A DNA stretch of 64,000 nt from an uncultured Myxococcaceae bacterium. Lineage in GTDB: Bacteria > Myxococcota > UBA727 > JABDBI01. Location of the stretch: assembly GCA_964635635.1 (NCBI GenBank), contig CAZWPE010000001.1:639020-703019 (forward strand), read 5' to 3'. Both the position numbers and the translations under genes were made by a program. Numbering within the stretch: the stretch's first letter is position 1; every line of letters begins with the position of its first letter. The notes under the pieces are model-generated. The model searched no databases. It saw only the letters and a list, made by a program, of their open reading frames with translations, and was not told the origin of the DNA. Below are positions 34,121-34,961 of the stretch, piece after piece.

Positions 34121-34961
34121 CCGCCTGCATTGCAGTCTGAATCGCAAGAACGAACGAATCCGGCTTGGCCAACCCCGTTCCAACCAAATGGTCAGCTGTT
34201 CCATGAGCAGGGCTGGCTCTAGGGATTTTAAGACCCCAGGTCAAGTTTGCAGCTTTGCCTTGGCATAGAAGTTTGTAAGGTCCAAGACCCTGGTCATGCA
34301 TCATGGCCATGACGGCGTGGGGGCCGGCTTGTTCTGGGCCCCTCACCCCAGCCCTCTCCCAAAAGGGGAGAGGGAGATAACCCCAAAAGCCGTCGGCTGA
34401 AACAGGACCAGTGACTTGATACCCACGAGCCTGAAAATCGCGAATCACTGGCTCAATCACCCTGCTTTCTTCATCACCCAACAGGCCATTTTCGCCAGCA
34501 TGCGGGTTAAGGCCTAACACTGTCACTCGTGTATCTTTTTCGGGCAGACCCAAATGCACGGCAGTGCCAGCGATTAAACGCTCTAGTTTAAGAGTAAGCG
34601 TTTCGCGCGTTAAGAACTCAGATACTTGACGAATTGAAACGTGCACCGTTGCGAGGCCTAAAATAAACGGCCCACCAATGAAGACCATGAGTGGCGGTTT
34701 GGAATCTATTTTCAAATTCTCATGCAGCAGCTCAGTTTGGCCAGGGTAGCCTCGCAAAATATCTTTTGAAACCGGTCCAGTCACCAAAGCCCCTATCTCT
34801 CCACGCTGAGCTGCATATATCGCCTGCATCAGAGCCTCATAGGGGTCTGGCGAGTTGAAAATATGGATTGCAGCCTCGGCCTCGCCTCCTCGCAATGACG
34901 ATAGAGCGCGTTCGAGCAATTCGGGGCCAATGCCCATCCCAGGCGTAATTCCGATTCTCAT
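34110..34961 (-). CDS. pdxA: 4-hydroxythreonine-4-phosphate dehydrogenase, carrying an in-frame palindromic-element insertion
   Basis: RIGITPGMGIGPEL N-terminus, LGLNPHAGE, AHGTADHLVGTG motifs. Start set to the MRIGIT Met (ORF track 35003), abutting the bamA stop. Confidence 0.8.
   Translation of the reverse strand: MRIGITPGMGIGPELLERALSSLRGGEAEAAIHIFNSPDPYEALMQAIYAAQRGEIGALVTGPVSKDILRGYPGQTELLHENLKIDSKPPLMVFIGGPFILGLATVHVSIRQVSEFLTRETLTLKLERLIAGTAVHLGLPEKDTRVTVLGLNPHAGENGLLGDEESRVIEPVIRDFQARGYQVTGPVSADGFWGYLPLPFWERAGVRGPEQAGPHAVMAMMHDQGLGPYKLLCQGKAANLTWGLKIPRASPAHGTADHLVGTGLAKPDSFVLAIQTAMQAAIG
34338..34376. repeat. REP-like palindromic element (CCCTCTCCC-aaaa-GGGGAGAGG core with cctcacccc flank) inserted in frame in pdxA, encoding LPLPFWERAGVRG
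   Basis: cctcaccccagccCTCTCCCaaaaGGGGAGAGggag seen on the plus strand. Adds ~13 aa between the conserved GPVSAD and AVMAMMHDQGL blocks. Confidence 0.55.

Follow-up and report, generated by a model that had tools for sequence, protein, structure and literature searches.

The pdxA gene of an uncultured Myxococcaceae bacterium carries, in frame, a complete unit of the repeat known as BoxC, PIT or TM_ECO. This was found by analysis of a 64-kb stretch of contig CAZWPE010000001.1 (64,000 nucleotides [nt] of assembly GCA_964635635.1, referred to in its entirety as the window). The 36 nt represent a precise in-frame insertion in a tolerant loop of the enzyme, which occurred after the split from the nearest sequenced relative, and the lineage of the source organism has undergone at least one BoxC insertion since its split from that related metagenome-assembled genome (MAG). 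Judging from the names of the nearest matches and from composition, the source belongs to an uncultured Myxococcota lineage with a G+C content of ∼45%. It is very probable that the complete unit was inserted precisely in pdxA after this split and is tolerated there as selfish, non-autonomous DNA, with a DUF559 enzyme as the putative agent of its mobilisation in trans. The element is a member of a known family, and it is the coding location and the lead to DUF559 that set this copy apart.

A complete BoxC unit in frame in pdxA

The host gene, pdxA (4-hydroxythreonine-4-phosphate dehydrogenase), lies on the minus strand at 34110 to 34961 and was assigned from a match to Pfam PF04166 (E = 1.9e-56) and from homologues in the PDB (1e-30). 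Translation from the ATG codon gives the 283-amino-acid form on record, which begins with MRIGITPG, while a TTG start would give 297 amino acids. The BoxC unit occupies 34339 to 34374, reading CCCCTCACCCCAGCCCTCTCCCAAAAGGGGAGAGGG on the plus strand and CCCTCTCCC-CTTTT-GGGAGAGGG-CTG-GGGTGAGGG-G on the minus (coding) strand. On the coding strand, the C-block CCCTCTCCC (34366 to 34374) forms the 5' arm of a hairpin and is followed by the hairpin loop (34361 to 34365) and by the G-block GGGAGAGGG (34352 to 34360), the 3' arm, which pairs perfectly with the C-block. A second loop, CTG (34349 to 34351), separates the G-block from the third block (G'), GGGTGAGGG (34340 to 34348). The hairpin thus consists of a perfect 9-bp stem and a 5-nt loop, and as DNA it had a folding free energy of -15.7 kcal/mol (z = -3.75). 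The G+C content of the insert was 69%, compared with 45% for the genome.

An earlier reading of the window, made from the sequence only, had described a palindromic repeat inserted in frame in pdxA, and the sequence was present as described, with its 9-bp stem and within a gene that Pfam identifies as pdxA. The extent given there, 39 bp or 13 residues, was reduced to 36 nt or 12 codons (L198 to P209) by DNA alignment with the closest orthologue. The same reading had assigned the repeat to a second, genome-specific family, and this assignment did not survive comparison with the published pattern for TM_ECO (earlier BoxC or PIT), CCCTCNCCC-N3-6-GGGNGAGGG-N3-GGGNGAGGG[GTC-] (Holder 2015; PMC4666352), to which the pdxA copy fitted on the minus strand with no mismatch. 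When a 49-nt query around the pdxA copy was used in blastn searches, matches of 89 to 90% identity over 96 to 98% of the query (E = 7e-8) were obtained in 5,130 of 5,426 complete Escherichia coli genomes, with a median of 6 places per genome; the K-12 copy used for comparison reads CCCTCTCCCTTCCAGGGTGAGGGCTGGGGTGAGGGT. The central bases of the three blocks were T/A/T in 227 of 272 three-block copies collected from other genomes, and the pdxA unit has the same combination. Rfam holds no family matching either this copy or the copy near tRNA-Ser described below. These results identify the pdxA element as BoxC/PIT/TM_ECO, a known pan-bacterial motif and not a new family.

The closest PdxA protein (85% amino acid identity) is encoded at a syntenic TamB-BamA-PdxA locus of the MAG GCA_964484075.1. 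The 12 residues were missing at the insert site in this protein and in 20 other aligned relatives, so that none of 21 carried the insert, as the sequence-only reading had expected for PdxA proteins of related taxa. Alignment of the DNA with the closest orthologue (locus L003), in which the unit has no counterpart, gave a difference of 34 + 2 = 36 nt, and excision of CCCTCTCCCCTTTTGGGAGAGGGCTGGGGTGAGGGG from the window restored TAT-CTC-CCA-GAA (YLPE), compared with YLPQ in the relative. The junction was ambiguous by 3 nt (CCC). The insert lies between the conserved ADGFWGY and AVMAMMHDQGL blocks, at a point where E. coli PdxA is ∼10 residues shorter, in line with the shorter E. coli linker noted earlier. 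The pdxA insert is therefore a clean natural case of a precise BoxC insertion (36 nt, with flanks that are not rearranged), a footprint that comparisons between E. coli genomes do not yield.

Two trivial explanations of the length difference were weighed. The 12 residues could be ancestral to this PdxA clade and have been deleted in the relatives, and only a single close relative (85% amino acid identity) was on hand for comparison. This explanation is effectively refuted, as the residues were absent from 21 of 21 aligned homologues, outgroups included, the DNA represents a full unit of a repeat family known from other phyla and from elsewhere in the window, and the G+C content of the insert is foreign to the gene. 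The derivation of the sequence from a MAG also raises the prospect of a chimeric repeat insertion during assembly or binning. The chance of such an artefact is negligible, because two independent Logan runs (SRR16481186 and SRR16481187) had assembled the same gene with the insert, identical to that in the NCBI MAG, and because the reading frame is intact.

The insert is translated as (P)LPFWERAGVRG(P), a 12-residue loop LPFWERAGVRGP; stop codons interrupt only one of the unit's six frames, and not the one used in pdxA. An AlphaFold2 model built on the alignment had a mean predicted local distance difference test (pLDDT) score of 87.7, with values of <50 only at residues 155 to 157 and at residues 198 to 210, the latter, which contains the insert, being the sole long stretch of this kind. 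No region of PdxA varies more in length across the family than the insert loop, and all of the family-invariant residues were retained. The insert is thus predicted to form a disordered 12-residue loop within the most length-variable surface loop of the enzyme. We attribute its persistence to its length of 12 codons, to the stop-free frame used and to its location in this loop; translated as a loop that is predicted to be disordered, the unit would act as selfish, non-autonomous DNA tolerated in coding sequence.

An alternative is that the insert has been kept for a function, either as a DNA or RNA structure (hairpin, triplex or G-quadruplex) that modulates pdxA expression or as a loop with a role in the enzyme. 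The stability and perfect pairing of the hairpin are compatible with such a function, as is a G-quadruplex-hairpin switch proposed for the motif by Kaplan et al., and the copy near tRNA-Ser may itself be constrained, being 100% conserved together with ∼170 nt of promoter region while the distal DNA has diverged. For the pdxA unit a function is nevertheless improbable: the unit was missing in every one of the 21 relatives aligned, the loop is predicted to be disordered, the fold of the mRNA around the insert was unremarkable in comparison to shuffled sequences (z = -1.3), and published tests detected no promoter or terminator activity for the motif.

Two further features of the locus were observed. 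The clade formed by this protein and homologues P0002 to P0018 (263 to 283 amino acids) lacks ∼50 to 60 residues after the N-terminal GIGPE motif in comparison to canonical PdxA (∼330 amino acids); the catalytic motifs are kept, and this looks like a clade-wide deletion variant. A 330-amino-acid open reading frame (ORF) without a Pfam match (33128 to 34120, plus strand) is convergent with pdxA, the two genes sharing 11 nt at the 3' end of pdxA. The counterpart of this ORF in the related MAG encodes 331 amino acids (L003, 12197 to 13192). In the protein, a signal-like start is followed by an N-terminal region rich in proline.

Other copies and palindromic elements in the window and its relatives

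A search of the 64 kb with the hairpin pattern CCCTCTCC-N3-9-GGAGAGGG gave two matches (34352 and 49056), compared with 0.00 expected from 100 shuffles, and no degenerate further copies of the pattern were found in the window. The second match belongs to an intergenic copy at 49043 to 49079 on the minus strand, in the divergent promoter region between dnaE and tRNA-Ser (anticodon tga; 49141 to 49230, plus strand; detected by ARAGORN and Rfam). The intergenic sibling near tRNA-Ser that had been described previously was thereby located, 61 nt upstream of the tRNA gene. On the minus strand this copy reads CCCCTCTCC(AC)-TTG-(GT)GGAGAGGGG-TTA-GGGGTGAGG and has an 11-bp stem. It did not match the strict Holder pattern, as its blocks (CCCCTCTCC / GGAGAGGGG / GGGGTGAGG) are shifted by one base. 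Loop 1 can be read as 7 nt or, with the 11-bp stem, as 3 nt; the three-block order is kept, and loop 2 is TTA, as in E. coli type A. Blastn comparison of this copy with E. coli returned almost nothing, its blocks being in a 4-G register. The second copy is a close BoxC variant, like many copies in other phyla.

The age of the second copy was assessed from a contig of a related MAG (L207), which was reached via the 90% cluster of DnaE. The copy and its flanks were present and 100% identical in this genome. Approximately 240 nt, comprising tRNA-Ser and ∼170 nt upstream with the BoxC copy, were almost invariant between the window (48960 to 49140) and L207 (4032 to 4200), whereas the coding DNA of the two genomes differs by ∼15 to 20% and the DNA further upstream of tRNA-Ser was barely alignable. 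The second copy is therefore old and predates the split, since the related genome carries it unchanged although the PdxA proteins differ by 15%. This BoxC copy may have been co-opted into a promoter region under constraint, formed by the ∼170 nt before tRNA-Ser. In two further relatives (L205 and L206), the dnaE neighbourhoods were not syntenic with the tRNA-Ser locus and were uninformative on this copy. The density of BoxC was 2 copies in 64 kb here, 1 in ∼41 kb of the relative and 0 in 39 kb of two further relatives. With one of only two copies being old, the suggestion that these elements are actively inserting in this genome was not supported.

The cdsA gene of the window contains another in-frame insertion, a two-hairpin element at 14056 to 14112 on the plus strand (GTCA-TTCCAGC-GAAA-GCTGGAA...CCCCAGC-CTAC-GCTGGGG-TGAC) that belongs to a different family from BoxC. 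This cdsA-type family, with conserved ends GTCATTCC...GGAATGAC, was also found in Dyella and other Gammaproteobacteria. The pdxA and cdsA inserts had been linked by a common GCTGGGGTGA end and regarded as modular relatives. In BoxC, however, GCTGGGGTGA consists of loop 2 plus the third block, while in the cdsA element it runs from the 3' half of hairpin 2 into the terminal TGAC, and the orthologous cdsA insert of the related MAG reads GCTGGAATGA at the position of this 10-mer. The resemblance at GCTGGGGTGA thus arose by chance in a single lineage and does not reflect a common module, and a modular relationship between these two separate families was rejected.

Comparison of the cdsA element with its counterpart in the relative (L339, 10148 to 10204) showed that the stems had swapped identity by compensatory changes (TTCC/GGAA for CCCC/GGGG and vice versa). 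Hairpin 1 is TTCCAGC/GCTGGAA in the window and CCCCATC/GCTGGGG in the relative, and hairpin 2 is CCCCAGC/GCTGGGG in the window and TTCCAGC/GCTGGAA in the relative. These exchanges argue for selection on structure or for conversion between arms.

The corresponding loop of CdsA in Myxococcota orthologues held BoxC in two cases, a partial BoxC in another (its G and G' blocks without the C-block) and, in a fourth, an insert of a third palindromic family, to which the peptide RSNPENLDGRVAPLLAMT in P0249 belongs. The sites, at 14050 to 14115 of the window, L336:~445-485, L337:~340-365 and L338:~440-480, are occupied by BoxC, truncated BoxC, the GTCATTCC-type element or the third family. As orthologues hold different elements at the same loop, the CdsA loop has been colonised repeatedly, and the variety of these inserts lends support to the view that palindromic elements of this sort insert into coding sequence in the lineage.

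Two other inverted repeats were observed in the window. The longest (42112 to 42185; ATTTCAGACTATTTTGCACGGTTTTGCAAAATAGTC / ...) has 36-nt arms that are 92% complementary and 2 nt apart and sits between divergent ORFs at 40722 to 42059 (minus strand) and 42184 to 43299 (plus strand); it may be an operator or a member of another repeat family. The other (62936 to 63033) has 36-nt arms (81% complementary) and a 26-nt spacer and lies in or beside an ORF at 62571 to 63086 (minus strand).

BoxC copies within genes and beside DUF559

The distribution of the motif was examined by scanning species-representative genomes with CCTCACCCC-N3-5-CCTCTCC-N3-9-GGAGAGG (23 fixed bases), and at least 120 stretches were obtained. 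The matches listed included Pseudomonas, Xanthomonas, Enterobacter, Acinetobacter and Alpha- and Betaproteobacteria and, beyond these, Chloroflexota, Planctomycetota, Acidobacteriota, Bacteroidota, Verrucomicrobiota, Cyanobacteria, Thermodesulfobacteriota and a Bifidobacterium MAG. Viral contigs also carried the pattern, in at least the number listed. The BoxC motif is thus found in nearly all bacterial phyla. The 272 three-block copies had lengths of 30 to 39 nt and no conserved flanking base. A check for unit lengths that are multiples of 3, proposed with the sequence-only reading, revealed no preference (63 of 272 copies), and in-frame copies are therefore a filtered subset and not a design feature. 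In some genomes, tandem arrays of BoxC or of the GTCATTCC family were observed with periods of ∼110, 150, 208 or 345 bp (L008:422-755, L027:2785-2926, L057:1318-1800 and 5884-6260, and L279). Such arrays occurred, among others, in Pseudomonas, in a MAG of the Gammaproteobacteria and in a viral contig, where 7 copies lie within 1.1 kb; they look like longer composite repeat units with the motif inside.

In the representative genomes, 24 of 139 pattern matches could be read for at least 100 codons to either side without a stop. Pfam analysis confirmed real host genes for 9 of 10 candidates tested, while the tenth (L081) may cover two neighbouring genes that share a frame; at least 9 of the 139 sampled copies (6 to 7%) are thus translated in real genes. 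These hosts were an IcmF-like mutase (inter-domain linker), LigA (inside the adenylation domain), Lpd (lipoyl-domain linker), a YgiQ radical-SAM protein, a CN-hydrolase, HsdR, a PMT_2 glycosyltransferase, GlnE and an Eco57I-like enzyme. As BoxC occurs in frame in unrelated genes elsewhere, the pdxA case is one instance of a general behaviour, of which no description was found in the literature searched. Motifs that have been called strictly intergenic can therefore be carried inside enzymes, and coding copies matter for gene calling and for protein-family alignments (peptides such as PSPxGEGxGVRG).

Some BoxC copies bracketed a complete gene or domain. An entire DUF559 domain (PF04480; Vsr-like PD-(D/E)XK) was found in frame between BoxC copies in MetRS of a betaproteobacterial MAG (E = 1e-32) and in LeuRS of a Cytophagales MAG (E = 3e-34). 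Loci that had been selected for BoxC contained four DUF559 genes in 842 kb, plus two in 1.02 Mb of viral loci, and all six were flanked by BoxC; only ∼3% of BoxC copies had a DUF559 gene nearby. We then sampled 80 DUF559 loci from metagenomes by using an alignment stripped of BoxC-coded residues. The core hairpin was present within 300 nt on both sides of 39 of these genes, on one side of 26 and on neither side of 15. BoxC therefore flanked 65 of 80 (81%), a figure that may hold for one DUF559 subfamily only, because the loci sampled were those closest to seeds themselves found beside BoxC. Hairpin density was 2.92 per kb near DUF559 and 0.085 per kb further away, a 34-fold difference.

The repeats around DUF559 were arranged as C-G-G' upstream and C'-C-G downstream, that is, as inverted repeats in which the third block points towards the ORF. 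Twenty-one complete DUF559-BoxC composites of 399 to 565 bp were delimited, whose ends are reverse complements, variable loops included; in a few, the inverted repeat extends some bases outward. At least 7 of the 80 loci held a composite in frame in a larger host gene, namely MetRS again, an HrpA-like helicase and subunits of type I, IIG and III restriction-modification systems. In-frame composites were noted at L018:2112-2648, L125:2423-2895, L035:6629-7100, L135, L166, L183, L178 and L126. Those in MetRS occupied the same site in two genomes. The in-frame composites are read through, and resemble intein-borne homing endonucleases but without an intein or intron. Among cultured organisms, BoxC-type repeats were also detected around DUF559 in Synechocystis and Azospirillum, and distinct three-block variants were found around DUF559 in Neisseria gonorrhoeae (CCTCTCTCCC-TGT-GGGAGAGAG-CTA-GAGAGAGGG), Picosynechococcus PCC 7002 (CCCCC-GATTC-GGGGG-CTA-GGGGG) and Sphingomonas (CCCCTCCCGC-based). 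On sequence comparison these variants appear to be lineage specific, with the repeat co-varying with the DUF559 lineage. Among predicted targets of programmed inversion, proteins named "DUF559 domain-containing protein" show a 14-fold enrichment (PMC9881135), which fits the inverted-repeat flanks. No paper linking DUF559 to BoxC repeats was found in a literature search that excluded subscription-only papers (Hoyne 2000, Bachellier).

The association extended to E. coli, in which ycjD is a DUF559 gene and the sole member of the family found in K-12. TM_ECO #9 lies 167 nt downstream of ycjD, and a partial BoxC hairpin covers the ycjD stop codon. The K-12 interval from this stop codon to TM_ECO #9 contains a second, incomplete copy of the 3' end of ycjD (GGTTCAG..GAATATTCTCCAGCACCGTCTCC; L124:1822-1975), which suggests a past rearrangement of a DUF559-BoxC composite. 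The ycjD gene was single copy and present in 3,378 of 5,426 E. coli genomes. It has been reported in phylogroups A, B1 and C (plus ST69 and ST182), with eefRABCD in its place elsewhere (PMC12817139), and published TM_ECO counts are 10 to 11 for O157/O55, 13 for strain 042 and 6 for IAI39 (Holder Table S7; PMC4666352). By phylogroup, there were 19 to 30 copies in the ycjD-positive A, B1 and C, compared with 0 to 2 in the ycjD-negative B2, 10 to 11 in E and 6 to 13 in D/F. The assignment of the Table S7 strains to phylogroups, which underlies this comparison of ycjD with TM_ECO, is one that we take to be correct. BoxC copy number thus appears to track the presence of ycjD in E. coli, over few independent evolutionary contrasts.

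These data suggested a mechanism in which the DUF559 (Vsr-like PD-(D/E)XK) endonuclease would serve BoxC repeats as their cognate enzyme, in the way that RAYTs serve REPs, and would mobilise solo units, the pdxA copy among them, in trans. More speculatively, pairing of the C-block with the third block would leave the central bases mismatched as T.T or, in the CCCTCGCCC form common in E. coli, as G.T. Vsr-type nucleases recognise lesions of the G.T kind. A broader proposal, that three-block BoxC/TM_ECO repeats are the terminal inverted repeats, and solo derivatives, of pan-bacterial selfish elements of ∼400 to 565 bp with DUF559 as the sole gene, is tentative, with somewhat less than an even chance of being correct. 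If it is true, there is a second partnership of the REP/RAYT type, built on a PD-(D/E)XK nuclease, and solo repeats and whole composites live in frame in essential genes (PdxA, CdsA, LigA, MetRS and LeuRS) without splicing.

Several observations weigh against insertion by a dedicated enzyme. Beyond the 3-nt CCC ambiguity, the pdxA insert has no target-site duplication or other footprint of transposition, and no target-site duplication was detected around the 21 composites. No DUF559 homologue was present in any frame of the 64-kb window, in which the pdxA copy is a solo unit, and the BoxC copy number there is low. To these must be added the choice of the 80 loci and the small number of contrasts behind the E. 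coli correlation. In a comparison of filled and empty sites at tauD-hemB of E. coli, the whole intergenic region was replaced, leaving no clean indel footprint. Published work on BoxC/TM_ECO names no origin or mobilising enzyme and finds no promoter, terminator or in vivo triplex activity for the motif.

The main rival explanation is that BoxC arises and spreads without a dedicated enzyme, by slippage, template switching at the hairpin or triplex, or gene conversion, and that DUF559 is a passenger homing into pairs of BoxC. It is favoured by the missing target-site duplications at pdxA and the composites, by the small fraction of BoxC copies with DUF559 nearby, by the tying of these motifs to local instability and replication problems, not transposition, by Holder et al., and by the existence of Vsr-like homing endonucleases (PMC3239194). 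A passenger, on the other hand, does not predict that BoxC copy number should follow ycjD in E. coli or that the repeat sequence should co-vary with the DUF559 lineage, and slippage cannot make a 36-nt unit 89% identical to E. coli copies at a naive pdxA site. We regard this explanation as unlikely, though a stronger competitor than retention for function, and prefer insertion of a selfish unit that may be mobilised in trans by a DUF559 enzyme. The link between BoxC and DUF559 is a strong physical and phyletic association, previously unremarked, that includes E. coli ycjD, and it makes the old question of the nature and spread of BoxC/PIT testable with a single E. coli gene.

Comparison with known systems

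The pdxA unit has the three-block architecture and essentially the sequence of BoxC/TM_ECO (PMC4666352). In published work, single-stranded DNA of the motif folds in vitro into a stable intrastrand triplex, which is not detectable in vivo; a triplex was demonstrated by circular dichroism and nuclear magnetic resonance for block sequences of this kind (Holder et al.; PMC4666352), and in the model derived there the third block is the reverse-Hoogsteen strand. In K-12 the motif is described as "always intergenic" and marks variable regions, in contrast to the pdxA copy, which is translated in frame within an enzyme. The motif has been reported in 262 proteobacterial genomes, with 100 copies of the core hairpin in Enterobacter sp. 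638 (PMC2869309), while the host here is a 45% G+C Myxococcota MAG with an apparently low copy number. Salmonella is reported to lack TM_ECO. The window and its relatives add coding copies to this picture. The description of BoxC/PIT in E. coli reportedly goes back to Bachellier and coworkers in the 1990s and to Hoyne and coworkers in 2000.

REP and REPIN sequences are dispersed palindromes of 20 to 40 nt that occur singly or as inverted pairs, with a RAYT gene (IS200/IS605-like Y1) bracketed by inverted copies. The REP-like behaviour suggested by the sequence-only reading was recovered in the form of a dispersed palindromic repeat inserted in pdxA with an intergenic sibling. The resemblance to REP/RAYT extends to a single-copy nuclease gene, DUF559, that is bracketed by inverted BoxC copies and whose lineage appears to co-vary with the repeat. 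The nuclease fold differs, being Vsr-like PD-(D/E)XK in DUF559 and an HUH Y1 transposase in RAYT. BoxC also has no GTAG-type head, no conserved flanking bases in 272 copies and three blocks instead of a simple hairpin, and DUF559-BoxC composites can sit in frame in host genes; the putative partnership is drawn from sequence comparison. Compared with miniature inverted-repeat transposable elements, the solo pdxA unit has no pair of terminal repeats and a 3-nt CCC redundancy at its junction, and the composites have inverted ends and no visible duplication.

Rickettsia palindromic elements (RPE), attributed to Ogata and coworkers in 2000, are said to be ∼100 to 150 bp long, restricted to Rickettsia and located in frame in conserved protein genes. 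Like an RPE, the pdxA BoxC unit lies in frame in a protein gene and is tolerated as an extra surface loop; unlike the reportedly longer RPE, whose sequence is unrelated, BoxC is 30 to 39 nt long (36 nt in pdxA) and pan-bacterial. Vsr-like (EDxHD) homing endonucleases such as I-Bth0305I (PMC3239194) provide a further parallel, in that a nuclease of the Vsr fold acts as a selfish element in essential host genes. Those enzymes reside in group I introns or inteins, which are spliced out, whereas DUF559-BoxC composites have inverted repeats, contain no intron or intein and are read through in the host protein.

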